From a virus (Duplodnaviria; Caudoviricetes), in IMG/VR virus record IMGVR_UViG_3300017689_000002, positions 4,093 to 68,092 of that record: a stretch of DNA of 64,000 nucleotides; one strand, written 5' to 3'. The first letter of the stretch is position 1; the number at the start of each line of letters is the position of its first letter. The notes under the pieces were generated by a model. It saw only the letters and a program-made list of their open reading frames with translations. It did no database searches and was not told the origin of the DNA. The position numbers were made by a program, and so were the translations under genes. Shown here piece by piece: positions 11,932 to 40,144 of this stretch.

Positions 11932-12125
11932 CAGTTATCCTCCTGGTGCGAAACAGCCTTTGCGATGGTAGTTGCGACGAGCCCATTTACGAGCGTCAGG
12001 ACTACGACCGCTGTGAGGATCTCACGCTTATTCAGTCGAATCCCCTCCTCAACGACGGTGGTCTTGTTCTTGTTCGGTTCAGCGTCAACCATCTTGAGCT
12101 CCAGTTTCTTGTTCTTAAACAGCAT
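11931..12125 (-). CDS. Small single-TM protein of the promoter-cassette array
   Basis: SD AAAGGAG; MLFKNKK start; C-terminal TM. Confidence 0.6.
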   Translation of the reverse strand: MLFKNKKLELKMVDAEPNKNKTTVVEEGIRLNKREILTAVVVLTLVNGLVATTIAKAVSHQEDN

Positions 12126-12191
12126 GGTGTCTCTCCTTTGCAATCGAGCAAAAGATAAAGGCCGTGTGAGGGTCTTATCTTTTTGTTGTAA

Positions 12192-12392
12192 TTAGTCTTC
12201 GGGGTCGGTGTCTTCTTCGTCGGACCAGCTGTCCAGAGCGGTCTTGATGACGTGACCGAGGACTGCGACAGTCAATCCGCCGACAACTGTGAAGACCGTT
12301 TTGGTCAGCAGTTGCTTGCGAAGAATCTTGTTCAGTCGGACGATCTCTTCATCAGAGGCGTTCAGGATGGTGGTGGTTTCGTTGATGTCCAT
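12192..12392 (-). CDS. Small single-TM protein of the promoter-cassette array
   Basis: SD AAGGAG; preceded by promoter motif at 12420. Confidence 0.65.
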   Translation of the reverse strand: MDINETTTILNASDEEIVRLNKILRKQLLTKTVFTVVGGLTVAVLGHVIKTALDSWSDEEDTDPED

Positions 12393-12423
12393 TTTATCTC
12401 CTTAGTTGAGGTTATTACTTCTA

Positions 12424-12546
12424 CTATAGGGCTTGTAATTCTTGCGAGGCTGAGCTCTCTTCGCAGGTTCGAATCGGGGCGTGATTTACACCACAATCCG
12501 GGCACTTGACAACGATAAAAGCGGCGGGAATTTTCAGATCATACAT
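12424..12546 (-). CDS. 40-aa Zn-finger-like peptide (not in ORF track)
   Basis: SD AAGGAG; MYDLKIPAAFIVVKCPDCGVNHAPIRTCEESSASQELQAL. Confidence 0.5.
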   Translation of the reverse strand: MYDLKIPAAFIVVKCPDCGVNHAPIRTCEESSASQELQAL

Positions 12547-12607
12547 GATGTATCTCCTTAGTAAGAAAACTAAAAGACCGTGTGAGGGTCTAGTAGTTTT
12601 GTTGGTA

Positions 12608-12808
12608 TTAGTCTTGGTTGAGGGTGCTGGCGAGGAACTTCTCGGCGAGGCCTTCGCTCACGATGAACTCGTCACGCTGGTTGAGGAGGGCTCCGTAGAC
12701 GACGCTGGAAATCACAGTGGAAACTGTAACGCCGGCGACGTACGCGAAACCGACCTTGTGGGCGGCGACGAAGTTAACGGGGGCTTTGGCGATCTTCTTG
12801 ATGTCCAT
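12608..12808 (-). CDS. Small single-TM protein of the promoter-cassette array
   Basis: True start MDIKKIAK after SD AAGGAG; the 229-aa track ORF is a read-through artefact. Confidence 0.65.
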   Translation of the reverse strand: MDIKKIAKAPVNFVAAHKVGFAYVAGVTVSTVISSVVYGALLNQRDEFIVSEGLAEKFLASTLNQD

Positions 12809-12864
12809 GATGTGCTCCTTAGTTAGGGTTAATACTTCTATTAAGAGGCTTGTAATTCTTGCGA

Positions 12865-12962
12865 GACACAAAGAAAACAAGAAGGATTGCGAATGATAAT
12901 TGGCAATGTTGACTAGCTTGTTACGGCTATGGGCTTCTTGTTTTAATGGGAAGATTAGATCT
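12865..12962 (-). ncRNA. Candidate structured ncRNA A
   Basis: No ORF or SD; directly after promoter motif 12965-12992; perfect 11-bp closing stem 12874-12884/12934-12944 with two inner hairpins. Confidence 0.45.
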
Positions 12963-13032
12963 TCTTCATTACAGTGTGAGTAAATCCTGCGAGCAAAACT
13001 TAAAGTCCTTGTGGGGACTCTAAGCCTTGAAC

Positions 13033-13239
13033 TTACTTCTCTTCCTGGATGGTGGTGTTCTTCTTGGCAGCACGCTTGGTGCGACGGTCCGAATACTTCT
13101 CGTAGGCGATTCCGATCAGCATCATACCGCCGAACGCTCCGGCCGTGGAAACGACGGAGAGCGCGAGGGTCTTTGCGATCTGAACGCCAAACGAGTCTTC
13201 GGTGGCGTCGATGTCGTTGGTGATGTCTTCGATGTCCAT
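13033..13239 (-). CDS. Small single-TM protein of the promoter-cassette array
   Basis: SD AAGGAG; promoter motif at 13266. Confidence 0.65.
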   Translation of the reverse strand: MDIEDITNDIDATEDSFGVQIAKTLALSVVSTAGAFGGMMLIGIAYEKYSDRRTKRAAKKNTTIQEEK

Positions 13240-13330
13240 GATTTCTCCTTGGGTTAGTTGGGGGGTTCATTATAGGCCTTGTAAATCCTGCGAGCAAAAA
13301 TTTAAAGGAGAGTAAACTTCGCGGTTACTT

Positions 13331-13428
13331 GCATTCAGATAGTGGGGTTTGCACCTAATGATCTAGTCATCACGACCTAGCATTTGTCAAGCAAATGTGT
13401 GGGGTCTCTTAAGGGTATCTGAATACTC
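13331..13428 (-). ncRNA. Candidate structured ncRNA B (multi-branch)
   Basis: No ORF or SD; directly after promoter motif 13432-13459; 11-bp closing stem 13416-13426/13331-13341 enclosing three hairpins, one with a GCAA tetraloop. Confidence 0.55.
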
Positions 13429-13500
13429 TTCTTCATTATAGGCCTTGTAAATTCTGCGAGCAAAAGAGAAAGTCCGTGTTAGGGACCTCTCTTTTGTTCC

Positions 13501-13746
13501 TTAGAAATTAAGGGTGATGTCTTTGAATTTGATGTCGGTGAATACTCGATCCGAGTGCTTCTTCAGCACGTCGATGGGCATGTCTTCGAGAGCACCCAGG
13601 TAAGCTTTCGACATGTAATCGAAGCTGGCCTCCTTGTTGCGGATGCGGGCTTTGAGTTTGTCGATGTAGATTGACTGGGCACAAGCGACGATGATGCTTG
13701 TGGCGGCTGAACCAGCGAGGATGAGGATACGGGTTTTGTCGTCCAT
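13501..13746 (-). CDS. Small protein with N-terminal TM, promoter-cassette array
   Basis: Start MDDKTRI after SD AAGGAG; promoter at 13771. Confidence 0.65.
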   Translation of the reverse strand: MDDKTRILILAGSAATSIIVACAQSIYIDKLKARIRNKEASFDYMSKAYLGALEDMPIDVLKKHSDRVFTDIKFKDITLNF

Positions 13747-13831
13747 GATTATCTCCTTGGTTTGGTGGGGTTCATTATAAGCCTTGTAAATCTTGCGAAC
13801 AAAAGAGAAAGGCCTTGTGGGCCTCACTCCT

Positions 13832-14086
13832 TTAAACTGTTACAGAACTGAGTAGTTCCATGTCTTCGGCGGTCAGAGTTACTTCCTCCGTTTTCGTGTT
13901 GACAATGGCGTAAAGGCGTTCGATCTTGCAGGTATAATATTGACCGGGCTTTATGGGCAACTCGGGATCATCGAAATGTCCGAGCCATTTGTAGCCACGA
14001 TCTCTTAGTCCTTGCAGGATCTGGCTCGCTTTGTGTACGCCACCGTCTGAGAGTTCGGGGAAGGAAAGCTGAATTCGTTGATTCAT
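13832..14086 (-). CDS. Small soluble hypothetical protein, promoter-cassette array
   Basis: SD GAAAGG; promoter at 14107. Confidence 0.65.
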   Translation of the reverse strand: MNQRIQLSFPELSDGGVHKASQILQGLRDRGYKWLGHFDDPELPIKPGQYYTCKIERLYAIVNTKTEEVTLTAEDMELLSSVTV

Positions 14087-14211
14087 GGTTTACCTTTCTT
14101 TTGGGGTTCATTATAAGCGCTGTAATTTGTGCGAACAATTTTTTAAAGCGTTGTAAAACTAAAAGCCTTTGTGGGGCTGTTAGTTTTTGTGGAACTTGTA
14201 CTGGGGTTTTA

Positions 14212-14340
14212 TTACTTCATGATCTTGTTGCAGATGGCCTGGTTGGCGTCGTTGATCATCACGGGCACGGATTTGACTGCCGTGGAGGCGATGAAGACGG
14301 CGACCATGGGGACAGCTTTGACAGTGTTGATGATGTTCAT
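14212..14340 (-). CDS. 42-aa hydrophobic peptide (not in ORF track)
   Basis: SD AAGGAG; MNIINTVKAVPMVAVFIASTAVKSVPVMINDANQAICNKIMK; promoter at 14367. Confidence 0.55.
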   Translation of the reverse strand: MNIINTVKAVPMVAVFIASTAVKSVPVMINDANQAICNKIMK

Positions 14341-14432
14341 TGTGTTCTCCTTAGTAGTGGGTTTCTTCTATTATAAGCCTTGTGATTTCTGCGAAGAAAG
14401 AAGGAGTACGTGTTAGGTACTCGATCTTTTGA

Positions 14433-14639
14433 CTACGCCTTGTGAGGGTCCAAAGTCATGTACATGGTGAAACCTTTGCGGTGGACGTTGTAGTCGTAGG
14501 AACCGGGTTCGACGGTGTGGTTGATACCACCAACCGATTTGAGCAACTTTGCGAGTGCTTTCTGGCGGATGGAGGTACCGTACATGTCGTAACGGTCTTC
14601 GGTGACTACAACGAGCAGGGGCTTGGTCTTCTTGAACAT
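14433..14639 (-). CDS. Small hypothetical protein, promoter-cassette array
   Basis: Start MFKKTKP after SD GAAAGGA; promoter at 14662. Confidence 0.6.
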   Translation of the reverse strand: MFKKTKPLLVVVTEDRYDMYGTSIRQKALAKLLKSVGGINHTVEPGSYDYNVHRKGFTMYMTLDPHKA

Positions 14640-14794
14640 GGGTGTTCCTTTCGTTGTGGGGGTCATTATATAGTGTGTAATTCTTGCGAACAATTTTTTA
14701 AAGCGTTGTAAAATAGGAGTACCTGTGATTTCGCTTTGTGGGCGGGTCACAGGTACTCCTATTTTGATTACGTCTTTGTTGGTTGTTGCGTGGG

Positions 14795-15085
14795 CTACTT
14801 GCCTTTGCCGACGAAACTCAGTGCTTTGGTCACAATCACTTCACCGCTCTTCTCGAACACGAGGATTGCCGCGATTCCGATGAGGTTGCTTGCTGGCTGG
14901 AGCAGATCGACCATCCCCACTCGACGCTTCTCCTGGGTAGGAGGGAGCATCTTGTGGAGGCGTTCGATCTGCTCGAGGTGCAGAACATAGTCTTCGGAAC
15001 CGACGACGAATCCGCGGAGCTCTTCGATGAGTTCGGCGATTGCGGTCTTAAGTTGGGTCTCGTGTGCGTTGGTTTTAGTAAACAT
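14795..15085 (-). CDS. Small protein with C-terminal hydrophobic segment, first gene of the array
   Basis: SD GAAAGGAG; promoter at 15109. Confidence 0.65.
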   Translation of the reverse strand: MFTKTNAHETQLKTAIAELIEELRGFVVGSEDYVLHLEQIERLHKMLPPTQEKRRVGMVDLLQPASNLIGIAAILVFEKSGEVIVTKALSFVGKGK

Positions 15086-15127
15086 ACGGGTCTCCTTTCA
15101 AGAGGGTTCTCATTATAGCCCGTGTGA

Positions 15128-15493
15128 TTACTGCGAGGCTCCCGTATTGGTCACCTTGAACACCATAGTACCCTTGTCCTTGACCGACTCCAGATCGTTC
15201 TCCAGAACCAGCTTCAAAGAGTCGCCATCCTCGGAGGGAGTGACGAGAACTTCGCCGTCAATACCCTTTTCGGACCTCTTGTAGTTACTCTTGCTCACCT
15301 TGACCGTAACACCCAGGAATACGGAGACGGCCGCGATAATACCAACGACCTCTTCCGCGTAGGGAAGCCCTACGATCTGTGAAATGGTGAAGTACAGCGT
15401 GCCCAAAGCCGGCAGGTAGACCAATGCGGCATTGCGGAACGCGTCGTAGGTCACAGGGCCCAGGGTAGGACTAGTCTTGCTGTGGTCGGACAT
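15128..15493 (-). CDS. Holin (Dp-1-type) at end of tail operon
   Basis: Start MSDHSK after SD GGAGG; two TMs, VYLPALGTLYFTISQIVGLPYAEEVVGIIAAVSVFLG..KVSKSNY. Confidence 0.7.
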   Translation of the reverse strand: MSDHSKTSPTLGPVTYDAFRNAALVYLPALGTLYFTISQIVGLPYAEEVVGIIAAVSVFLGVTVKVSKSNYKRSEKGIDGEVLVTPSEDGDSLKLVLENDLESVKDKGTMVFKVTNTGASQ

Positions 15494-24036: not shown

Positions 24037-26559
24037 TTATAGCGGACTCGAGATCGGACCCGCTAGTTGCCAAATACCACTAGTATCAACAATATATAGT
24101 GAATCGTCAATCAACACACTATCACCAATGGCACTTCTTGACGGCAGATTCTTGAAATACGAAACCACTGATACTGAGGTTGCCGGATCATCAAACCAGT
24201 AAGGAGTGAGGATCTGGTCATGATATGCATAGCTGGCAAGACCACCATCGAAGTACGGATATGCCTCCGTTCCTTCGTAGATAGCTAGTGCATCAACCCA
24301 CATTTCACTGTCGCCAATAGCCGCACCGTTGTAGAACCTTAGAATAGCCGCATCATTATCTAGCGTAACAGTCCAAACAATCTCAAAATCTCCTGCAACG
24401 TTAGGTGCTGAAGGAGAATATTTAGCAGATCCATCATTGAGATAGAAACGCCGAGCTGTACCACCGGGAGATGTTTGTGCTGCCGTCAATCGACCTCGGA
24501 TGCGCATCGTATACGTTCCGCCAGCCTTCAAAGCGTCAGCCGGCAAAGGCATAAACGTGTCACGACTGGTGGATGTTGGAATAATCCTAGCGGAACTAGG
24601 ACCAGACGCACTCCATTCAGTTGACTGAATAACTGCGGCTAGAGTGGGATATGCGAGGACGCCAGCAATAGCTAGACCCGTCTTGATAGTTGTGCTATCA
24701 TCAGGAGTACCTGTCCAACTAGTTGAGAAATCACCGACGTTAGGAGTGTTACCATCATAGTAGGCATTACTTACGTTGCCTTCATAGATCGAAAGTGCGT
24801 CAAACCAGACGTCGGGATCACCCATCATGCCGTTATTATACAGACGCAGATACCAGTTACCAGAACTAGGAACAGTGAATACCAACTTAGCTCGCTGCTC
24901 ACCAACCTCATTCGGGAACGTATATGTGACGTTGTTAGTTCCACCGGTAGTACCAGTAAGCACTACAGTGGCAGCAGCACCTCCAGTTGGATATTTCTCA
25001 GCACGTCTATGCGTCACACCTAGAGTATAGGTCTTGCCAGCTTCTAGACCTCTAGGATTACCAACACTAGCAATCTCGGTATAAGCACTGCCTCGAGCAG
25101 AGTAGGTAGAAATAAGCCTGAGTGATTTACCGCCAAATGCAGACCAATCGGAAGATTGAACAGCATAAGCAACAGATGCTGGTGTGGGATATTGAGTAAT
25201 ACCAGTACCCTGCTTCTGACTAGAACTTGGTGCCGTTCCATTCCAGATATAGATGAAGTCTCCGGCATTAGTAGTATCACCGTCGAAATAAGCCAAAGCT
25301 ACTGGTGCTTTTTCGATGAGGACATCGCCCATTTCGAAGATGTCACCCGACGTACCTGCTCCAGCAGTAGATACCATAGCAACGTTGAACAAATCAGTCG
25401 TGCTAACTGCCCGATCCAAGGTGAGAAGAATAACACTCTCACGCCAAGTCAGAGGACTAGTCCCATCAACAGTAATCAATCCTTCGGGGAAGTAATAATT
25501 ACCATTGTTCGTGTGGGCTTGAATCCGATAGGGTCGAGTAGCCCGTGTCTTGACTCGGATCGCAATCTTATCTCCAGCCACCAATGATGTATCAGACGGA
25601 GCGCTGAAGACATATGGAGTAGCGGATCCGTCGGCTGTCGAACGCACTGCAAAACGAGTTGCGTCCCATTGTGCGGCAACAGAAGACAGCGCCACCCCCG
25701 AATATCTAGCCGTTGTCTTAGGGTTTGGATTGGTGCACAGATTGGACCGAACCGTGATAGCGGCGCCCGGGTTCTGGAAACTAGGATTGGTAGCCAAGTT
25801 AGTCTGAACAGTGACGACACTACCACTCAAAGACTCAAAGCTCGGGTTGGTAGCCAGGTTAGTAAGGGTAGCCCTATCGGCAGAGATCTTACCAACAAAG
25901 TTGAGAGCAGAAGTGAACTTCCAGAACTCAAACAGGGATGCCAGCTGCATCATGCTAGGAATACGAGGCTCGATACCGTCGGCACCGTACAAATATCCCT
26001 CGACATAGCTCAAGAGACCAGGCGCCGTCTTAGTTGAATCGATGTAGTAGTGAGCACTAGCTCGTCTACCGGATACCGAAACGGGACGGGTTGTCAGATC
26101 CCAACTAAAAGTCAGAGGATCGACGTTAGAATCCTGAGTCTGGTGATTCTTTTCGGTCGGAGATGCAAGAGCATTGTAAACCAGGTGGATGCGATATCCT
26201 AGAGAAGTACCATTGACATCGTCACCTAGTAGAGTACGATAGGAAAGAGAGAATTCTTGACGAGGCTGGAGTCCAAAGGCCAAACCGTTGCCGTCGAACG
26301 CTGTACCATCAATCTCAGCAAACTCGTCAGGGTAGGTGTAGGCTTCGATAGATGCTTCAAAGTCTTCCGGAGCGGTGTCGTTCAAATATTTGTAACCGTT
26401 GACATAGTAGGGAGTTGCTCCCCCGCCAACAATCTTTTCGGATACGGAGATAAGACCGTTCCAAGGAACACCGGGGCCGTCGTTAGGATACAGAACTCCA
26501 CGATCAACGCCGACTTCGAATTTGCGTTGTCCGGTAGCACCCCAAACAAGCTTTGCCAT
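24037..26559 (-). CDS. Second tail-tube-like protein fused to three carbohydrate-binding-like domains
   Basis: N-terminal ~200 aa clearly paralogous to 27157-28023 (LVW..TGQR.FE.GVD.GVLY, WNGLISVSE, FEA.IEA.TYPDEF); NLATNPSF and YFDG repeats. Confidence 0.8.
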   Translation of the reverse strand: MAKLVWGATGQRKFEVGVDRGVLYPNDGPGVPWNGLISVSEKIVGGGATPYYVNGYKYLNDTAPEDFEASIEAYTYPDEFAEIDGTAFDGNGLAFGLQPRQEFSLSYRTLLGDDVNGTSLGYRIHLVYNALASPTEKNHQTQDSNVDPLTFSWDLTTRPVSVSGRRASAHYYIDSTKTAPGLLSYVEGYLYGADGIEPRIPSMMQLASLFEFWKFTSALNFVGKISADRATLTNLATNPSFESLSGSVVTVQTNLATNPSFQNPGAAITVRSNLCTNPNPKTTARYSGVALSSVAAQWDATRFAVRSTADGSATPYVFSAPSDTSLVAGDKIAIRVKTRATRPYRIQAHTNNGNYYFPEGLITVDGTSPLTWRESVILLTLDRAVSTTDLFNVAMVSTAGAGTSGDIFEMGDVLIEKAPVALAYFDGDTTNAGDFIYIWNGTAPSSSQKQGTGITQYPTPASVAYAVQSSDWSAFGGKSLRLISTYSARGSAYTEIASVGNPRGLEAGKTYTLGVTHRRAEKYPTGGAAATVVLTGTTGGTNNVTYTFPNEVGEQRAKLVFTVPSSGNWYLRLYNNGMMGDPDVWFDALSIYEGNVSNAYYDGNTPNVGDFSTSWTGTPDDSTTIKTGLAIAGVLAYPTLAAVIQSTEWSASGPSSARIIPTSTSRDTFMPLPADALKAGGTYTMRIRGRLTAAQTSPGGTARRFYLNDGSAKYSPSAPNVAGDFEIVWTVTLDNDAAILRFYNGAAIGDSEMWVDALAIYEGTEAYPYFDGGLASYAYHDQILTPYWFDDPATSVSVVSYFKNLPSRSAIGDSVLIDDSLYIVDTSGIWQLAGPISSPL

Positions 26560-26576
26560 GATGCACCTTTCTTTGT

Positions 26577-27128
26577 TTAGCCCTTGGTTCCCAATTCAGC
26601 TTTTCGCTTTGCGTTTAGATCGCGGTTTCTAGCGGCCAACTGAGCGGGACTCATTTTGGACTTGGCCTTACCCGTGTTCTGTTTGTCGCCGATAACCTTG
26701 ATCAAGGTCATCAAACGACTAAAGTGCCAATACTGCACTTGGAAGTCAATCTGACCCGTGACAAGCCAGTAATATACAACTTCAGATGTAATGATCTCGT
26801 TGCGACCGGGTTTATCCGGCGTAGCACCAAACCAAGTCGCCGAACGCTTAGCGTTGATGTACCGGTTGATGTCGTCAAGATCCGAAGCGGAAAGTAGGTG
26901 ATAGACGGCGGGATCGACGTCTTTGTTCAGGGTCATGCAGCGAACGTAATCGAGGACCTGAACGTTAGTCTTTTCGGCATTACCCAGGAAGGGAATCTCC
27001 CAAGTTTCCTCCCATTTTGAAATGGAGACCAGGGAATGCTCTAGCTCAAGCACAAACTTAACTGGAGGAATGAATTGGTTGATCTCCGCATTCCACAGTT
27101 CTTGTGTTTCAACTTCAAGTCTGAGCAT
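26577..27128 (-). CDS. Tail assembly chaperone (T-like)
   Basis: Start MLRLEV after SD AAGGAG; LELEHSLVSISKWE..W..PFL, DYVRCMT, WHFSRLMTLI; follows tail tube. Confidence 0.65.
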   Translation of the reverse strand: MLRLEVETQELWNAEINQFIPPVKFVLELEHSLVSISKWEETWEIPFLGNAEKTNVQVLDYVRCMTLNKDVDPAVYHLLSASDLDDINRYINAKRSATWFGATPDKPGRNEIITSEVVYYWLVTGQIDFQVQYWHFSRLMTLIKVIGDKQNTGKAKSKMSPAQLAARNRDLNAKRKAELGTKG

Positions 27129-27156
27129 TCCCTGATCTCCTTTCCTAATTGCTGGT

Positions 27157-28023
27157 TTACGCGAAGGTGTAGACCCAGTCGTCGTCCGAGCTGGCCGAGA
27201 GCTTGTAGCCCTGCGTCGCAACCGCGGTGACAACGGTGTCCTTCGTGATCGTAACGGTTCCGCTGACGGCCTTGCCATCGATGCGGTACTGAACACCGGT
27301 GACCGTGGGGATCGTGATGACCTTGGTCGTGGCGTTGTACGACGGAGCCGCCGCAGTGACGGCCGTGTTGGTACCCGACATGATGGAGGCAATCTCGGCG
27401 GGGAGGGGCAGACGGGGGTCCGTAGCGCCGCTACCGTAGAGGATGGCCTCGATCTCAGCAAGCTTGGCTGCCGGGACCTTGGTCGAGTCGATGGTGATCG
27501 TAGCCGACGGCTTGCTACCAGGAACGTCGACCGCGGTGGTCGTGAGCTCCCAGCTGAAGGTGATCGCCTCAGGCGACTCGTTGACGGTACCGAACGCCTT
27601 CTCCGTGGGAGCAGCAAGTGCCCCATAGATAAGGTGGATCTTGTAACCCTTGTCGGTACCAAGAACGTCATCACCAACGAGCGTGCGGTACGAAAGACCA
27701 AACGTCAGACGGTTCTGCTGACCGACAGTGATACCAGGAGCGATCTCCTTGGTACCGTCGTTGGCCGCAAACTCATCGGGGTAGGTGAAGGCTTCGATGG
27801 TTGCACCGAACTCCTCCGCCGAGATGAGGTTGAGGTACTTGATGTTGTCGGCGTACATCGGAGTAGCTTCGGCACCCGAGGGGCTTTCGCTAATCGAGAC
27901 GAGACCATTCCAGGCCACGCCATTGACGTAGTTGCCGGCACTATCGCGCTGGTAAAGGACACCCTTGTTAACGCCGGTTTCGTAACGGCGCTGACCGGTG
28001 GCATCCCAAATGAGTGCTACCAT
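27157..28023 (-). CDS. Major tail (tube) protein with C-terminal Ig-like domain
   Basis: phi13-type tube motifs; GC-rich high-expression codon usage. Confidence 0.9.
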   Translation of the reverse strand: MVALIWDATGQRRYETGVNKGVLYQRDSAGNYVNGVAWNGLVSISESPSGAEATPMYADNIKYLNLISAEEFGATIEAFTYPDEFAANDGTKEIAPGITVGQQNRLTFGLSYRTLVGDDVLGTDKGYKIHLIYGALAAPTEKAFGTVNESPEAITFSWELTTTAVDVPGSKPSATITIDSTKVPAAKLAEIEAILYGSGATDPRLPLPAEIASIMSGTNTAVTAAAPSYNATTKVITIPTVTGVQYRIDGKAVSGTVTITKDTVVTAVATQGYKLSASSDDDWVYTFA

Positions 28024-28034
28024 TATATACTCCT

Positions 28035-28340
28035 TTAGAAGTAAAGATTGTAAACGAAGTGGTTCAGTTTATCTGCTCTAAACGCGCGTCCAAAGGAGCA
28101 CCTAGGCAATTTGGAGATCGCGTGATGAACCGGACTGTCCGGATCCCTATCGATTACCGTGATTTCCCAACGCCAAGTCTGAAGATATGGCGCGTTGTCT
28201 GCGTGTTGGGTAGAGAGCTCATCAATGTTGTAAATGATGGCGGGGTACTTCATCTGCGTATTGCTAGGCTGTTGGAAGTGGACTTCGTCTGAGCCTAGAA
28301 TAACCTCAAGGAGTGTCTGAAGTTCAAGCCTTCGGTCCAT
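28035..28340 (-). CDS. Tail terminator
   Basis: V.FQ.P....MKYPAIIY...HADN.PY; position. Confidence 0.7.
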   Translation of the reverse strand: MDRRLELQTLLEVILGSDEVHFQQPSNTQMKYPAIIYNIDELSTQHADNAPYLQTWRWEITVIDRDPDSPVHHAISKLPRCSFGRAFRADKLNHFVYNLYF

Positions 28341-28644
28341 TGTACACCTCCCCCAAACGCAGAATAAGACGGGGACGCTCTACATCGACAGTTGTAACCG
28401 TCCAGAGCGTCCCCATCCATTCGACGTACTGAATGGCAGCGAAGTGTTCGTTGGCAAAGGCGTCAGCAACAATACTGATTGAGTTAGAAACAGCGAGATC
28501 GCTAATAGGTCTCTCACCCTCAAGCCTGCGGATATTTTTGAGGACGTCACCGAAGTATTCTTTCTCAACGATGACGTCCTCAGTTACTCCGGGCTTGGTT
28601 CTCACAGAATGCGAATAGCCGACCTTACCGAAGAATCGTGCCAT
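28324..28644 (-). CDS. Head-tail stopper (head closure) protein
   Basis: MARFFGKVGY, ISIVAD.FA.EHF..I.YVEWMG..W.V; position. Confidence 0.7.
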   Translation of the reverse strand: MARFFGKVGYSHSVRTKPGVTEDVIVEKEYFGDVLKNIRRLEGERPISDLAVSNSISIVADAFANEHFAAIQYVEWMGTLWTVTTVDVERPRLILRLGEVYNGPKA

Positions 28645-28652
28645 TTTGAAGA

Positions 28653-30854
28653 CTACGCGGTGTAGATGTAGTCCCAGTTGTTAACCGTGTTCGCCGGGAA
28701 CGAGTAACCCTTGGCGGCGCGAGCCTCAACGGTCGTGTCCTCAGCAATGGTACGGTTACCGTCCTGCACGTCAACACCATCGATCGAGTAGATGACACCG
28801 TCAACGTCCGGGATCGTCAGCACGTGGGTCGAGCTGTTGTAGGACGGCTGCGGCGGGGTCACCACGGTGCCGAGCGAGCGCTTGATGACGACAGCCGACT
28901 TGGGCTTGGTCAGGGCACCCGAGACACGGGTCTCGATCAGGTACTTCTCCTGGTTGAAGTCGATGTCGAAGTCGCTGAACATCGTGACATCGCCACCGCG
29001 GTCCGTACCGATGGTGTAGTCGGTCAGGTTGACCACGATACCAAGGATGTCGGGAGCGTCGTCCATGACCTCGACGGTCACGATCTTGGCAACACGCAGA
29101 GCCGAAGCCAGAGCAGCCTCGGTCTCGTACAGACGACGGCCCATCTTGTCCTCGAGGAGGATGAGGTCGGTCAGCGTCTTGTCCGTGGTGTAGAACGTGG
29201 GGGTACCGGTACCCTTGTAGTACGTACGGGCACGGAGGACAGCGGTGATGATCTCCTTGGGAGCCAGCTCCGAGGTCAGGTTGACCTGGTGAGCGTACAT
29301 CTCGTTGTCGTAGGCGATCGGACGGATGTGGTCCTCGTCGATCTTGTCGTCGTCATCCGCGTCACGACCGTCACCGATCAGGATGGCACGAGCAAGTTCC
29401 TCGTCGAGCATGACGCGCATCTCGGCCTTGAGCCAAGCAACGATGTCCAGCGAGGTGATCTCCAGGATGTCGTCCCGGTCGAGCTTCTGCTTCTTGTAGA
29501 TGGTCTTGGCCGTGGTGACACGCTTCAGGAGCTTGATCACCTCGTCCTTCTTGAGGGTGCCCTTGACGTAACCCTTGGCGCGAGCCTCTTCGGCCGTGAT
29601 GTCAACAGCAGTCGACTTGATTCGCGAGAAGGGAGCCTTGCGGGTGGCGCCCAGGACGTCCTTGACCCACTCGGTACGACGACCGATGATCTCAGGCGAG
29701 TTCGCCAGGTTCTGAGCATCCGGGAACAGGACATCGATGTTGTCGATACCATACTCACCAGCGTGAGCCAGCACGGACTCGGACAGGAGGCCGAACTTCG
29801 GACCGTCCTTGACGATCGTGGAAACCTCGGAGTGGCTCAGCGTGTGCTGTGCCGTGGTCGAACCACCGTTACCGGCAGTGTCAAAAATGTTGCGGCCCAT
29901 GTCGGTACCTTCCTGGTGTGCGAGAGTGTCGGAGTTGTTGTCACCCTGAGCAAGGGTGGTGCCGTTGGTGGCTTCGCCGATCATGAAGTAGACCAGCGCT
30001 TTCTGCTCTTCGGTGAAGCTGTCGAATACATCTTCGGCGGTCTTATCGGCCATGTTAGTTCCTTCTGCGTGAGAAATGTCGGAGTCTTCTTCATCGTCGT
30101 CTTCGTCATCATCGTCATCTTCGTCCCCAAGGGCCTCAGAAAGCATGTGACGGACAACAGCTGCTTGAGTGTCATCGAGCGTATCAAGTACGTCGGCGAT
30201 ACTCAGTTCGTCATCCCCTTCTTCATCCGAGTGGCCCAGGGCCTCAGTAAGCATGTGGCGAACCACAGCAGACTGCTCTTCGGTGAAAGTGGCGAAGACG
30301 TCGGCGATACTCTTTTCCTCATCACCATCGGTATGAGCGATAGAGGCCTGCTCGTCCTCGACTACCTCCTCGCCGGGAGTAATCGAGTGCGTGTCGTCGT
30401 TGAAGATAATAGCTTCCTCTTCAATCGGCGTCATGGTACCATCACCGTGCATCATGTTGACGTTATCGATGGTGGCGCCAGGGTTAGCACCAGCAAGAAC
30501 GAGACTGACCTCACGAATCATACCGTGAGTAACGTCCTTACCAGTAACTCCGCTGTGGACCAGCTGGTTAGCGTAGATGGACAGAGCCTCCACGTCGCCG
30601 TGCTGGACGAGCTGCTTAGAGTCCCGACCCTTCTCGGTGTCATTGAAGAAGCCGTAGGCGTAAACGCCATCTTCACGGTGCTCCAGAATTGCGTGACCGA
30701 GAACGTTCTCAGGACCATTGTGCTGGTGCTGCCAGACGAGAGGGACACGCTGCTTGTCCTGGTGCTGGAAAGCACCCGACATAATTGTCCGACCATCGGA
30801 GCACTTGATACCATTCTTTGAAGCGTAACCGCTAAAGTCAGGCTTGGGTGCCAT
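28653..30854 (-). CDS. Prohead protease-scaffold-major capsid fusion protein
   Basis: Start MAPKPDFSGYA after SD AAAGGA; HK97-type protease (VWQHQH..VLGHA, EVSLVLAGANPGA), acidic scaffold, capsid body (YGIDNIDVLFP...DIDFNQEKYLIETRVSGAL). Confidence 0.9.
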   Translation of the reverse strand: MAPKPDFSGYASKNGIKCSDGRTIMSGAFQHQDKQRVPLVWQHQHNGPENVLGHAILEHREDGVYAYGFFNDTEKGRDSKQLVQHGDVEALSIYANQLVHSGVTGKDVTHGMIREVSLVLAGANPGATIDNVNMMHGDGTMTPIEEEAIIFNDDTHSITPGEEVVEDEQASIAHTDGDEEKSIADVFATFTEEQSAVVRHMLTEALGHSDEEGDDELSIADVLDTLDDTQAAVVRHMLSEALGDEDDDDDEDDDEEDSDISHAEGTNMADKTAEDVFDSFTEEQKALVYFMIGEATNGTTLAQGDNNSDTLAHQEGTDMGRNIFDTAGNGGSTTAQHTLSHSEVSTIVKDGPKFGLLSESVLAHAGEYGIDNIDVLFPDAQNLANSPEIIGRRTEWVKDVLGATRKAPFSRIKSTAVDITAEEARAKGYVKGTLKKDEVIKLLKRVTTAKTIYKKQKLDRDDILEITSLDIVAWLKAEMRVMLDEELARAILIGDGRDADDDDKIDEDHIRPIAYDNEMYAHQVNLTSELAPKEIITAVLRARTYYKGTGTPTFYTTDKTLTDLILLEDKMGRRLYETEAALASALRVAKIVTVEVMDDAPDILGIVVNLTDYTIGTDRGGDVTMFSDFDIDFNQEKYLIETRVSGALTKPKSAVVIKRSLGTVVTPPQPSYNSSTHVLTIPDVDGVIYSIDGVDVQDGNRTIAEDTTVEARAAKGYSFPANTVNNWDYIYTA

Positions 30855-30910
30855 TTTGAAGTATTCCTTTCTGTTCCTTGCGGACCGAGGTCCGAGTAGT
30901 CTTAACTGCG

Positions 30911-32197
30911 TCAACCATCAGCAGACCTGGCTCGATCTGTGACGGCATCCAGCTCACCCACATCGACCGGCGGCAAGGCTTCTTGACCTGCAGCTGTTTT
31001 GGCGATCGGCATGTTCGAGTTACGCAGTTCGTTGGCCTTCGGATCCTTAGAAGGACGGAAGCCAATGATGCCACGAACCTCGTTGGAAGAGAGGATCTCG
31101 TTTCGGGTAAATTTGTCAGCAATCTCGGCCATAGAGCCAACAGGAACCAGACTGAACGGATCCCTGAAGAACTTGATGGTCTGAAGCTGGGTGCGAGCTG
31201 TCTTCGTAAGGAACGTACGAGTCATAGCTTGCGTGACCGCGGTCATGATGGGTTCAATGGTGCGGTTGTAGTAGTTGAGCATGACTTCTTCGGAGGCAGA
31301 GCCCTCAAAGACTTCTTTAGTAATGCCCAGCTGACCATAGAGCATGTTGGTCAGATACTCGACCTGTGCCAACATGTTGTTCTCGGCGGGACGGTTGAGC
31401 TGTGTGATCTTCTCGTTGCCGTCCACGTATGCAATGCCGTACTTAGACCCCTTGAGCTGCATCTCGATGTCTTTACGACGAGCGTTTGCTTGTTCTCGTT
31501 TGGTGTCGGTACGAACTGTATACGGCAGCTGAACGATAAGGTCCAACTTACCCGAACTGGTCTGTTCGTCAATAGCATCCAGCATCTGCAGTTTACGAGT
31601 GAGACGCGACAAAGTCGAGTTAGGCTCGTTCATGACAGACGATAGAGGGTTTTCGACAATAGCAACCGCCGACTTCGACATCACCATTTCCTGATGAAGC
31701 CCAGTGCGATCATTGTAAACATTAACTCGGACGTGCCGCGGATACCAACCGATCACCTCAGCAACTCGCAAGGTACGAATATCGTACCCTGTGTAGATGT
31801 TAGGGTTCTCGGAAGTATCAACCGGAACAATAGCGATAGCGCCCTTATCCAACAACGTCATTACGACGTCCTGCATAAAGGCACGAGCACCTTGATCGAT
31901 ATTAGCCTCAACGCTCAAGCAATTATTCAGACCACTAGAGACCGGCTCGAGAAACTGGTTGTTCTCATCCAGACGAGCATGAACCACATCAATGGCGGCC
32001 GCGTCAATAGCAATGCGAGTGTAGATCGAGTTAGTGAACGACCTGTCATTGCCCATGTTAAGTCGAACTTTATCAGGTCGCTGTCCATAAGACATACCTA
32101 CCTGAGGCCCTACATTAAATGGAGAAAGACGATCCTCTTCAGGACGCGTAAACGCGTTCCAAGCGTGGGCAAGTCTATCACGTATGTTATCCGCCAT
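30911..32197 (-). CDS. Portal protein
   Basis: About 428 aa between terL and capsid; RLAHAWNAF, KLDLIVQLPY, LQLNRP-like, NEILSSNEVR. Confidence 0.9.
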   Translation of the reverse strand: MADNIRDRLAHAWNAFTRPEEDRLSPFNVGPQVGMSYGQRPDKVRLNMGNDRSFTNSIYTRIAIDAAAIDVVHARLDENNQFLEPVSSGLNNCLSVEANIDQGARAFMQDVVMTLLDKGAIAIVPVDTSENPNIYTGYDIRTLRVAEVIGWYPRHVRVNVYNDRTGLHQEMVMSKSAVAIVENPLSSVMNEPNSTLSRLTRKLQMLDAIDEQTSSGKLDLIVQLPYTVRTDTKREQANARRKDIEMQLKGSKYGIAYVDGNEKITQLNRPAENNMLAQVEYLTNMLYGQLGITKEVFEGSASEEVMLNYYNRTIEPIMTAVTQAMTRTFLTKTARTQLQTIKFFRDPFSLVPVGSMAEIADKFTRNEILSSNEVRGIIGFRPSKDPKANELRNSNMPIAKTAAGQEALPPVDVGELDAVTDRARSADG

Positions 32198-32229
32198 GGT
32201 CACCTCCTTTCTGTATTAGAAGTTAGAGG

Positions 32230-32817
32230 CTAGCGACCCGTTGCGGCAGTAAGAGCTCCAGCGACACCGAAGAGAACAGCTGATGCAACCAGAGCCTGAG
32301 TAGCTTCCTTAGTGGTAGAAGACGTGGCCGTGTCCCAGGTGTCGCTGTACTTGTCAGAGGCGGCCCGCAGAGCGCGCTTTGCAGCCACCTTACCCTGAGT
32401 CTGCTTGTCAATCTTGTACTGCTGGCGAGCCTTCTGGTACGCCTCAGCGTCCTTCGGGAGACGGTTACGTGCGTCTTCGATGTTCTTGTTGTAGGCATCG
32501 CGGTCGGACTTACGCGCCTCTTTGTTTTTTGCACGAAGATCAGCCTTATTGGCGGCCTTCGTGTTCTTGATAGCCCCACCAGCGGCACGTCGGTTAGCCC
32601 CCAGATTCGAGCCCCCACCACTGTCAGAGCGCGCGGAACGCTTGCCCCACTTCATGCCCTTCACACCAAAGTGCTCAAGGAAATCATCAACTGCCACATC
32701 ATTAGCCATTTCGGCTCCTTCGTTAGTTTGGCTATGAGCCGCTTCGGTTTCTTCCACGTCCATAGAAATGATCTGGCCGTTAGAATCGTATTCTACTTTA
32801 AATTTGAAATCAGCCAT
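32230..32817 (-). CDS. HxGVKGMKWG-motif protein 1 (possible internal start at 32709)
   Basis: FLEHFGVKGMKWGKR; basic helical C-terminus. Confidence 0.75.
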   Translation of the reverse strand: MADFKFKVEYDSNGQIISMDVEETEAAHSQTNEGAEMANDVAVDDFLEHFGVKGMKWGKRSARSDSGGGSNLGANRRAAGGAIKNTKAANKADLRAKNKEARKSDRDAYNKNIEDARNRLPKDAEAYQKARQQYKIDKQTQGKVAAKRALRAASDKYSDTWDTATSSTTKEATQALVASAVLFGVAGALTAATGR

Positions 32818-33278
32818 TAGAGATCCCTAATCGTCCAGTCAGGCATTCCGTCAGTTTCGACATTGTAGTCGAGCGCAACAACCTTTTTCTTGCCCGAGGG
32901 ACTAACGCCCATCTCAGCAGCTGCCTCATTCCAACTATCAGTAGCGAGTTTAGAATACCCTTTGTAATACTTGGTTGCAATGGCTTTGTTTTTTGGAGCG
33001 TTAAGATCTTTACCCTTAAACTCGGGCTGGTCGTTATAGGCCCCGAGTTTTGCGTTGATCTTTCGGGCGCCACTGTTGAAAATGGCATAAGGATAACCGC
33101 TAGTCATCTTCTTTTCCCATTTAGCGTCAGCTTTAGCAAGCTTCTTTTCGGCTCTTGAGGGTTTAGTAGAGCCTCCAGAACCGCTAGAACCTCCAGAGTC
33201 GCCACCACTGTCAGAGCGCGCGGAACGCTTGCCCCACTTCATGCCCTTGACACCGAAGTGCTCAAGGAAATCATCAAC
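32615..33278. repeat. 77-bp direct repeat (32615-32691 and 33202-33278)
   Basis: 75/77 identical; both differences synonymous; encodes VDDFLEHFGVKGMKWGKRSARSDSGG. Confidence 0.9.
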
Positions 33279-35978: not shown

Positions 35979-37553
35979 TTAATATACGGTGGACACGTCA
36001 ATGACGCCGGATACTTGCAAGGCTTTGGCACCATAACCAACAGCGGTCTGAGCTGCTACTGCAGTAGGAACAATATGTCCGAGTACCTTCTTAGTATCAG
36101 CAATACTCATCATAGTTGCCCATGTACTAGATGAAGCGGTGTACTCGAGTCCCAGGAAGTCCCAATAGCTAGCGTATTTAGCTGCATCCCCATTGTTCAC
36201 GTCAGCAGTGTAGAAATATCCCCAAACCAAGCAACCAATTGCATGGAATTCATTCGCAATTGCAATACCGGTACCATAGAACTTTCCCATGATACGGTTC
36301 TTGTAATCGGGAATGGTCTTGATGTAGTTATAAAGATCTACTCGACCAGCTGTAGAAATATACTTCGGGTCTAGCATGAGAGTGTGCGTACCCGACCACC
36401 GATTGACCAGATCGGTTAGTCGGTAGTATTTAGCAGTGTTGAATCTAGAATCTCCACGACTGGGAAGGTCTTGAATAAGCGCTTCAATCTCAGCATCTGT
36501 ATGATCGCTAAAGAACCAGTCAGTACCGCCGTTTGCCGCAGATGGACCAACAGAAGAACTTGTTCGGTTTGCTGTATTGTCATGGGCGCCCCAGAAGGTA
36601 CCGTCTTTAGAACGGACCAGAGACATCTCCATGACATCGACGTGACAGATAGCGGATTCAAGATACCCACGCTCGCTGTGTTCCTGGTAATCCTTTGACC
36701 CGCCTCGGTGCGCCATGGTCCAAACACGAGTCATACTAACGAGATCTGGAACTAGAGATCCAGGATATACAGCAGTGACCTTAGCCAGCTGAATTTCCTG
36801 CGAACCATCCCACCAAGAAACCTTGCCGTCAATAATGTTACCTTGACCGTCGCTGATCTTCAAAGCAAGTCGAGTAGGAGTAGCATCGACTGCCGGCGGA
36901 ATAACCAGCATGAAGGATCCACGGTTACCCGTTTGGTTAGGCCAACCTCGAGATACGGCGTCTCCAGTAGAACCATCAGCAGTGAGTTTACGGTGCGCAA
37001 TAAGGAACGAGTTGATGGGGTTAGACCCAGCAATGATTGTCCAATATAGCTTAGTAAAGGGAGAGTCGACGGTCATTACGTCAGACTCGGTAGCCGCTGT
37101 GGCTTCTGCCTGGATGGATATGGCAAGGGATCCGGCAACTGCTCCGGACACCCCAGGTGTGGTCTGTGTCGTAAGGTTAGCGCCCTTAGAAAAGGCTCCC
37201 TTCAACCACGTTGAAATATCAGTTACACCACCGCTACCCCACTGAACATCAGCAAAAGCCGCGCCAGTTTTGGCTTGAGTAAAGGTCCAGGTGTTAGGAT
37301 CTCCATCTACTCGTCGCTTGGCAAATACCGATAGGATACGAGAGCCAAGAAGTGACGGAGCCAACACCTGGACCCAACCCGAATTGCTGGGTGCCGTGAT
37401 GGCATGGGCTTCCGAATTTGAAGCAGTTGTATGGATTGAGGCAACCATCCAGTCACCAACAGCAGGACCATCGGAACTAGGGACATTTACCGGAATCGGA
37501 GTTGTGCCCGAGTTGGTGGTTGTGAGGTGATTTTTGTATAGTGCCTCAGCCAT
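35979..37553 (-). CDS. Virion-associated glycerophosphodiester phosphodiesterase (beta-rich N-domain plus GDPD)
   Basis: MAHRGG...EHS...EMSLVRSKDG...HD GDPD signature; structural region. Confidence 0.8.
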   Translation of the reverse strand: MAEALYKNHLTTTNSGTTPIPVNVPSSDGPAVGDWMVASIHTTASNSEAHAITAPSNSGWVQVLAPSLLGSRILSVFAKRRVDGDPNTWTFTQAKTGAAFADVQWGSGGVTDISTWLKGAFSKGANLTTQTTPGVSGAVAGSLAISIQAEATAATESDVMTVDSPFTKLYWTIIAGSNPINSFLIAHRKLTADGSTGDAVSRGWPNQTGNRGSFMLVIPPAVDATPTRLALKISDGQGNIIDGKVSWWDGSQEIQLAKVTAVYPGSLVPDLVSMTRVWTMAHRGGSKDYQEHSERGYLESAICHVDVMEMSLVRSKDGTFWGAHDNTANRTSSSVGPSAANGGTDWFFSDHTDAEIEALIQDLPSRGDSRFNTAKYYRLTDLVNRWSGTHTLMLDPKYISTAGRVDLYNYIKTIPDYKNRIMGKFYGTGIAIANEFHAIGCLVWGYFYTADVNNGDAAKYASYWDFLGLEYTASSSTWATMMSIADTKKVLGHIVPTAVAAQTAVGYGAKALQVSGVIDVSTVY

Positions 37554-39810: not shown

Positions 39811-40144
39811 CGTCGAATGTCTCCTCACCTTTGTATGTGGTGAAGGCTCGAAGTGCCTGGTCCAGAAGTTTCTGGGTATCCTGCTGAGAATCGCCAGATG
39901 CAATCTTTGCTTTAGACAACTCAATGTCTTGTTCGATTTTCTTGAGCTCTAGTTGTTCACGAATGGAACCGAGTTTCAAGAAGTGTGTCATCACCTGTGA
40001 AGAAGCAGTACCCTCACGCATCTGCTTCTCAGCTAGGTCGTGAGCAAGAGAAATCATCTGATTCTCTCGAGCTTCTACAGTGGTGGCCGGAGGACGAGCA
40101 GGTCCATCAAGACTCGGCTTCTTAGTTACCACTACAGTGCTCAC
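39797..40144 (-). CDS. terS: Putative terminase small subunit
   Basis: 115-aa helical protein upstream of HNH and terL; SD AGGAGG. Confidence 0.55.
   Translation of the reverse strand: MSTVVVTKKPSLDGPARPPATTVEARENQMISLAHDLAEKQMREGTASSQVMTHFLKLGSIREQLELKKIEQDIELSKAKIASGDSQQDTQKLLDQALRAFTTYKGEETFDDAED

Follow-up and report, generated by a model that had tools for sequence, protein, structure and literature searches.

One cassette in the small-gene array of this uncultured actinobacterial phage appears to be a non-coding, promoter-driven slot with a stable predicted structure, as the first-pass annotation had proposed. The slot, here called slot B, covers positions 13331-13428 on the minus strand of the window, the 64,000-nucleotide stretch that was analysed; this stretch occupies bases 4093-68092 of an IMG/VR virus record that is 68,092 bp long and has a completeness rating of 100%. 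The best reading, which we favour tentatively, is that slot B would be a lineage-specific, stand-alone structured small RNA (sRNA). This reading is supported by an intact promoter box, the lack of coding capacity, an outlier fold that is independent of the transcript context, and the RNA genes found in slots of related phages. It is weakened by the lack of a homolog and of a terminator, by the arbitrary windows that fold equally well, by the recombinogenic nature of the array, and by the resemblance of the ACCCCAC elements and the tail to leaders and terminators.

The phage itself belongs to a recognisable group. PHROG matches in the window outline a siphovirus-type module, with TerL, portal, protease/capsid, major tail, Dit and minor tail proteins. 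At 42537-45239, on the minus strand, a 900-aa protein matches phrog_4291, described as 'RNA-dependent RNA polymerase' (E = 0, 1312 bits). This protein has 250 relatives among cultured phages, most of them annotated just as 'helix-turn-helix DNA binding protein', and the top matches are in Curtobacterium phage Yotsuba (60%) and Arthrobacter phage Circum (59%). A further 71 relatives, at 40-67% identity, are found in IMG/VR. A two-barrel polymerase flanked by helix-turn-helix (HTH) domains has been proposed as the signature of an actinophage supercluster, whose members are Arthrobacter clusters AM, AU and AW, Gordonia DJ, Rhodococcus CC, Microbacterium EL and Streptomyces BI (bioRxiv 10.1101/842583). 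The 900-aa protein of the window is the HTH-flanked two-barrel (YonO/QDE-1-like) polymerase of this supercluster. At the DNA level, blastn against 50,697 phage genomes found no close cultured phage, and no relative of the window's minor tail protein was found in IMG/VR.

Slot B is located within an array of monocistronic cassettes that runs from 15.1 to 12.1 kb on the minus strand. Each cassette consists of a promoter box, a short leader with AAGGAG, an ORF of 40-100 aa and a hairpin with a U-rich tail. The promoter box, TCGCRNNWWTYWCANNNNYTWTAAT, occurs in nine genome copies at no more than one mismatch, each of them on the coding strand; in the reversed control there are 0. Its conserved position is about -33 to -19, unlike a normal -35 element, and a sigma-70 scan flags none of these sites. 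In relatives there are 5-8 copies in each of four cultured phages, and the box is strand-consistent in 14 of 21 IMG/VR relatives, again with 0 in the reversed controls; the exact pattern has no match in IMG/VR. The copies cluster 3' of the tail genes, in a consistent strand orientation, in divergent phages that all have the two-barrel RNAP-like gene: at 12423-15136 (minus strand) in the window, 29014-30417 in Yotsuba, 24967-29257 in Circum, 27611-31722 in Zeina and 30015-33192 in Gordon. The eight cassettes neighbouring slot B all have AAGGAG or AAAGGA followed by ATG, and in six arrays of relatives 39 of the 43 promoter copies are followed by a Shine-Dalgarno (SD) sequence and an ORF of at least 25 aa, the other four being without.

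The promoter of slot B is found at 13435-13463 (minus strand), directly upstream of the slot. It contains the copy TCGCAGAATTTACAAGGCCTATAAT at 13459-13435, with TTGC in front and a TATAAT -10 element at 13440-13435, and shows no mismatch to the repeated box. Earlier it had been called a perfect-consensus promoter. For the phage-specific box and the TATAAT this is right, but in terms of sigma-70 it is not: the -35-like hexamer, TTGCTC, agrees at 4 of 6 positions, and a scan of 12100-15200 is blank. A stand-alone sRNA should have a promoter of its own, and slot B appears to have one in the complete box and TATAAT. The slot begins about 7 nt past the promoter copy, and from the spacing rule only, transcription is predicted to start at the G at 13428 (minus strand), the 7th nucleotide after TATAAT. 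The next promoter copy, at 13266-13297 (minus strand), differs from that of slot B at 1 of 32 nt and drives a 68-aa gene at 13239-13033. In the region between, 13434-13298, there is no SD and no frame of more than 12 codons. A small peptide was considered as the product of slot B and rejected, the longest frames being 10-12 codons and lacking an SD.

The predicted fold is a four-way junction, in which an 11-bp closing stem surrounds three arms. The first 98 nt from 13428 have a minimum free energy of -25.5 kcal/mol and a z-score of -3.26, and 1 of 200 shuffled sequences is equally stable. In the closing stem, 13426-13416 (GUAUUCAGAUA, the 5' strand) pairs with 13341-13331 (UAUCUGAAUGC, the 3' strand), both on the minus strand. 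This stem was already described in the first-pass annotation, and it is recovered with 10 Watson-Crick pairs and one G-U pair, at probabilities of 0.83-1.0 in all transcript contexts tried. The first arm (13374-13406, minus strand) is compound: GACC and GGUC pair around CCACA and a hairpin at 13397-13381, with probabilities of 0.96-1.0, and the arm includes the first of two ACCCCAC copies (13405-13399). The second arm (13358-13373, minus strand) is GUGAU-GACUAG-AUCAU, at about 0.65. The third (13342-13355, minus strand) is GGU-GCAA-ACC followed by an unpaired CCAC, and includes the second ACCCCAC copy (13348-13342). Two hairpins that had been seen by eye, CAUUUG-CUUGA-CAAAUG and GGU-GCAA-ACC, are well supported, with pair probabilities of at least 0.98 and about 0.87, respectively. 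A third proposed helix, CUAG/CUAG, drops out: its probability is about 0, and the ensemble favours GACC/GGUC (0.96-0.98) and the GUGAU/AUCAU of the second arm. The pair probabilities are the same when slot B is folded as a 131-nt RNA, with upstream sequence, or as part of a 429-nt read-through transcript.

How unusual is such a fold? Among 726 arbitrary 98-nt windows on the minus strand (mean z -0.46, sd 1.24), 2.5% reach -3.26, so the stability of slot B alone is only suggestive. We also made a more telling like-for-like test, taking from each cassette the 98 nt that begin at its predicted start, with boundaries untuned. Here the z-scores are between -1.09 and +1.09 in the eight coding cassettes, -3.26 in slot B and -2.66 in slot A. 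Some of this difference is to be expected, since the leaders of coding genes avoid structure. Slot A is a second promoter-driven slot without an ORF, at 12865-12964 (minus strand), with z = -3.66 on its own boundaries; it folds into a 5' hairpin and two further hairpins enclosed by an 11-bp closing stem, which abuts a U run. The original observation of slot B is largely correct, and in the local context it is more than chance.

A stand-alone sRNA should also have its own terminator or a defined 3' end, and slot B lacks this. A terminator scan of 13298-13431 finds no canonical intrinsic terminator, while the same scan does recover the cassette terminators at 13825-13809, 13489-13469, 14422-14404 and 12591-12575. 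The slot is followed by a 3' tail (13298-13330, minus strand) with a weak AU-rich hairpin, AGUAAC-CGCGAA-GUUUACU, and then CUCUCCUUUAAAUUUUU. This hairpin stands 9-12 nt before a U5 run, whereas in slot A and in the RNAs of cluster AU, described below, the final stem abuts the U run. Since a canonical terminator is lacking, read-through into the next cassette is likely, and a discrete RNA of about 100 nt is not assured. That slot B gives a discrete transcript with a 3' end of its own, and that it has any function, is what we infer from the sequence.

In the cluster AU phages, promoter-driven slots in tandem have no credible ORFs and hold a family of RNAs. The family is found in 55 phage records and its alignment (A2) is free of gaps. 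It is built from a 7-bp closing stem that starts at the 5' end of the transcript, three hairpins (GACAC-GAAUG, a T-arm-like GGUUGAAAU and a long 3' hairpin) and a U run. Covariation is clear: 11 of the 26 pairs have changed on both sides, and 98.4% of the cells are paired, compared with 39-53% in slid controls; none of 500 shuffles reaches the observed level. Copies are located in Tokki (L005, 2603-2696 and 2753-2846), Gordon (L078, 439-532), L079 (412-505), L080 (417-510 and 567-660) and L081 (439-532), as well as at G016:C1:32785-32876 and G026:C1:18109-18200. The covariance model of the family (R2) also detects it in two IMG/VR relatives, with scores of 79 and 23.5 bits, and the Tokki copy, which was checked against Rfam, has no match there. 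Some of these RNAs carry no annotation; in Tokki, Shepard, Inked, Tenno and Brunswick, tiny hypothetical proteins have been entered in their place, probably as mis-calls.

The slots of cluster AU (Gordonvirus) resemble slot B in having the same promoter box, in their place in an array 3' of the tail/lysis genes and in their size, about 90-130 nt. Further, in both a long closing stem that starts at the transcript 5' end encloses three hairpins. However, there is no homology between them in sequence or by covariance model. A single-sequence covariance model of slot B (R1, self-control 125 bits) matches nothing in the AU genomes. R2, run over the window with cmsearch and filters off, finds nothing at slot B; its best match in the window as a whole is terminator-like (10.7 bits, E 1.2), while the positive controls give 108-110 bits in Tokki and 79 bits in the IMG/VR relative. 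The T-arm-like hairpin, the built-in terminator with its U run and the covariation support are all features of the AU RNAs that slot B does not have.

A second type of RNA is seen in Gordon, Caterpillar and Inked, where a slot holds a promoter-driven, tRNA-like minihelix of about 60 nt (Gordon L078 345-405; also in L079 and L081). It consists of a 7-bp acceptor-like stem, GGUAAGG/CCUUGCC, and a canonical T-arm, GCGG-UUCGAAU-CCGC, with no D or anticodon arms, and ARAGORN is silent on it. When the four slots without an ORF in the six arrays are studied, three contain an AU-family-like RNA, which in one case is directly followed by a tRNA-Lys(UUU) called by ARAGORN in an IMG/VR relative (L220 2938-3011, minus strand, the same as G026). 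tRNAs and tRNA-like RNAs thus share these cassettes. As ORF-less cassettes in this lineage are usually RNA genes, the prior for slot B being one is raised. Highly expressed intergenic non-coding RNAs have also been described in cluster A mycobacteriophages and Rhodococcus phage WC1 (PMC10986025). Like slot B, these are non-coding, of actinobacterial phages and obscure in function; unlike slot B, which is known from its sequence alone, they have been shown by RNA-seq, and they come from different phage lineages and genome positions.

No homolog of slot B was found in the collections searched. R1 found nothing in 49 related records (42 from IMG/VR, together with Tokki, Lewando, Yotsuba, Circum, Zeina, Gordon and Giantsbane) and no match on 76 IMG/VR loci with the two-motif pattern. 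On nine JGI metagenome contigs with the common 20-mer it gave only local 27-nt chance matches, and on 37 GTDB loci with the closing-stem pattern a single 16-bit chance match. Elsewhere in the window R1 matches 37283-37377 (minus strand) weakly, at 17.4 bits and a rough E of 0.04; this is inside a 524-aa phosphoesterase/minor-tail ORF and probably a chance match. In near and distant blastn searches of the 50,697 phage genomes, the only matches are with cluster AU Arthrobacter phages and are confined to the terminator-promoter junction. The sole other sequence of slot B is a 151-nt freshwater metagenome contig, identical over 13293-13443, and the ENA/Logan contigs that encode identical neighbour proteins are re-assemblies of the same sequence, with zero variation. 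Among the public sequencing runs listed as containing the sequence, none is of RNA. Its flanking proteins (13501-13746 and 13033-13239) are singletons as well, with no relatives in 5.8 billion protein clusters or in IMG/VR. The lack of a homolog means that there is neither covariation nor evidence of purifying selection, and this is due to missing relatives, not to broken pairs.

The slot was also compared with the rest of its own genome. A decayed neighbour cassette was rejected, as Smith-Waterman alignment to the leader and ORF of the eight cassettes gives p = 0.39. With blastn-short only chance 9-12-mers are found in the rest of the genome, among them a 12-nt match at 40032-40043 of a kind expected about once by chance. 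Lacking similarity both to the coding cassettes and to the rest of the genome, slot B is no obvious fresh pseudogene.

A possible clue to function comes from the hairpins that end the cassettes. Hairpins just 5' of the promoter copies have a limited set of loops: CACAA (7 cases), CUAACAC (6), ACAC (3) and CCACAA(A) (3). Constant ACA loops on variable stems with C/G ends are found in the window, in Tokki, Lewando and Yotsuba and in two IMG/VR relatives. In the window, the terminator hairpins with ACA-type loops are at 12575-12591, 13000-13025, 13469-13489, 13809-13825, 14164-14178 and 14404-14422; ACA-loop hairpins are also seen at loci L005, L006, L085, L216 and L217. Two low-GC relatives, G042 and G038, have no near-constant ACA loops. 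That the loops are nearly constant across distinct phages suggests a sequence-specific reader of them. In slot B, the arm GACC-CCACA...GGUC is an ACA-loop hairpin with a mini-hairpin inserted in the loop and no U tract. Two readings of this central arm are possible: in a decoy, it would functionally mimic a signal that is recognised; in junk, it would be half of a terminator left behind.

Taken as a gene for a small non-coding RNA, slot B would fill one cassette of the modular array of promoter, small gene and hairpin, and transcription from the promoter at 13435-13463 would begin near 13428. The 5' end of the RNA would at once be locked into the 11-bp stem that closes the four-way junction of three arms, and the 3' tail would be unpaired and CU-rich. 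The likeliest mode of action, which we offer as a guess, would be that of a protein-binding or decoy RNA: almost all cassettes of the phage and its relatives finish with an ACA-loop hairpin, whose CC-CCACA half the central arm of slot B would copy, minus the U tract. The protein sponge suggested in the first-pass annotation is possible through this resemblance to ACA hairpins.

The other mode suggested there was pairing in trans, between two ACCCCAC elements without a partner in cis and GUGGGG targets. Both elements are present (starting at 13405 and 13348), but the ACC of each is paired in the predicted fold. The targets are not enriched: the coding strand of the 64 kb has 17, against about 16 expected, and the proposal of trans pairing is not supported. 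Further, CCCCAC(A) belongs to the general grammar of the array. Since neighbouring leaders (13770, 14661) and terminator loops (13016, 14176) carry it, ACCCCAC is not specific to slot B. Actinobacteria do have sRNAs with C-rich loops, for example the Rfam family 6C. Slot B resembles these in having unpaired C-rich motifs able to pair with G-rich targets; however, its C-runs are located in junctions and are partly paired, instead of being in hairpin loops, and it has no Rfam match.

The array itself changes between close relatives. Public runs X3, X4 and X7 contain relatives that are about 90-97% identical in the flanking cassettes. The contigs from these runs, collected at 80% likeness, leave 13304-13504 uncovered and have no bearing on whether slot B is absent there. 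A contig from X3, of a relative that is about 90% identical, runs from the terminator at 12566 straight into the promoter at 13295, which is direct evidence of cassette exchange via the repeated junctions. In a second X3 contig, which spans from 12980 to 12811, slot A and the promoter downstream of it are replaced by 41 other letters. Contigs that do cover slot A come from X3 and X7, with 9 and 5 differences, respectively. Cassette order and content thus differ between close relatives, as expected if repeated junctions recombine. Given the X3 join and the near-identical promoters on both sides of slot B, the array is recombinogenic and able to make junk junctions.

This leads to the strongest alternative, which we regard as somewhat unlikely but serious: slot B may be a non-functional by-product of cassette recombination, with an incidental fold. 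It would then be a patchwork of promoter, leader-like start, half an ACA-loop terminator, filler and terminator tail, derived from the repeated terminator-promoter junctions. Such an origin agrees with the single difference in 32 nt between the flanking promoters and with the different cassette order in the X3 relative. Parts of the slot can even be matched to possible sources: its last 30 nt or so, together with the promoter that follows (CUUUAAAUUUUUGCUCGCAGGAUUUAC), are almost a copy of the terminator-promoter junction found at 13010-12980, and CUUAAGAGACCCCACAC resembles the 5' arm and loop of the terminator at 13025-13000. The absence of homologs from every collection searched and of a terminator of its own would follow as well. 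However, slot B has a robust fold that, like the fold of slot A, stands out from the rest of the array, and its central 95 nt or so is unlike any other part of the genome. A useless insert of 134 nt between direct repeats should also be deleted easily, yet this one persists, and equivalent slots in relatives hold real RNAs.

Improbable, in our view, is that slot B is a cis-acting structured leader of the 68-aa gene, which would then have tandem promoters. The idea comes from UCUCCUU (13311-13305), which is complementary to the AAGGAGA SD of this gene: transcripts from the distal promoter would carry the pairing sequence and be translated less, while those from the proximal promoter would be translated freely. 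No terminator separates the two promoters, and in a model of the read-through transcript the SD pairs with 13305-13311 at about 0.5, by which its mean unpaired probability goes from about 0.46 to about 0.31. This effect is modest, though, and a full promoter lies between slot B and the gene. Moreover, terminators in the array usually have CUCCUUU as their 3' arm, and the X3 relative has another cassette in front of the promoter of the 68-aa gene.

Known RNA classes do not account for the structure. Rfam 15 gives no cmscan match at the gathering thresholds, with searches at E<=10 made on 2.4 kb and on 161 nt, which agrees with the earlier description of the RNA as undescribed. A C/D-box or K-turn RNA was rejected, as only snoRNA-type rows appear, at 12-13 bits against thresholds of 36-47. 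The slot shares the four-way junction, the 'cloverleaf-like' look, with tRNAs, and it was rightly said not to be a canonical tRNA: ARAGORN finds 0 genes in the window, Rfam has no tRNA or tmRNA rows at E<=10, and the T-loop GGTTCRAWTCC is absent from slot B even with one mismatch allowed. It further differs from tRNA in having no D-loop signature and no CCA/discriminator context. By analogy with the T-arm minihelix, the RNAs with T-arm-like hairpins and the tRNA-Lys(UUU) in slots of relatives, its junction architecture might be taken for that of a highly diverged tRNA-like decoy against a host tRNA-targeting defence, but we give this very little credence: besides the blank ARAGORN and Rfam results and the missing T-loop, the closing stem is 11 bp instead of 7, the sizes of arms and loops do not fit a tRNA, and the AU-family covariance model misses the slot.

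The sRNA reading of slot B can be extended to a wider and more speculative one, which we consider rather doubtful. In it, slots A and B would be lineage-specific representatives of an undescribed class of promoter-driven, structured RNA cassettes (tRNAs, tRNA-like minihelices, ACA-hairpin mimics) that are swapped like genes and act as decoys. The class would span the small-gene arrays of the two-barrel-RNAP supercluster, and its targets would be the reader of the ACA loops or RNA-targeting defences of the host. The broader pattern of RNA cassettes in the supercluster is a more valuable lead than the orphan slot B.

Little work has been done on phage small RNAs outside the models from enterobacteria and mycobacteria. 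Should slot B prove to be a real RNA, there would be further evidence that cassette arrays contain more than protein genes. About one in ten cassettes is an RNA gene under the same promoter, in Arthrobacter AU/AM, Curtobacterium, Gordonia and Streptomyces phages and in uncultured relatives. One consequence would be a correction of annotation, since several GenBank records call tiny 'hypothetical proteins' over RNAs. Another would be that the role of these RNAs could be studied in phages that are in culture and tractable, for example Gordon and Tokki, which grow on Arthrobacter.
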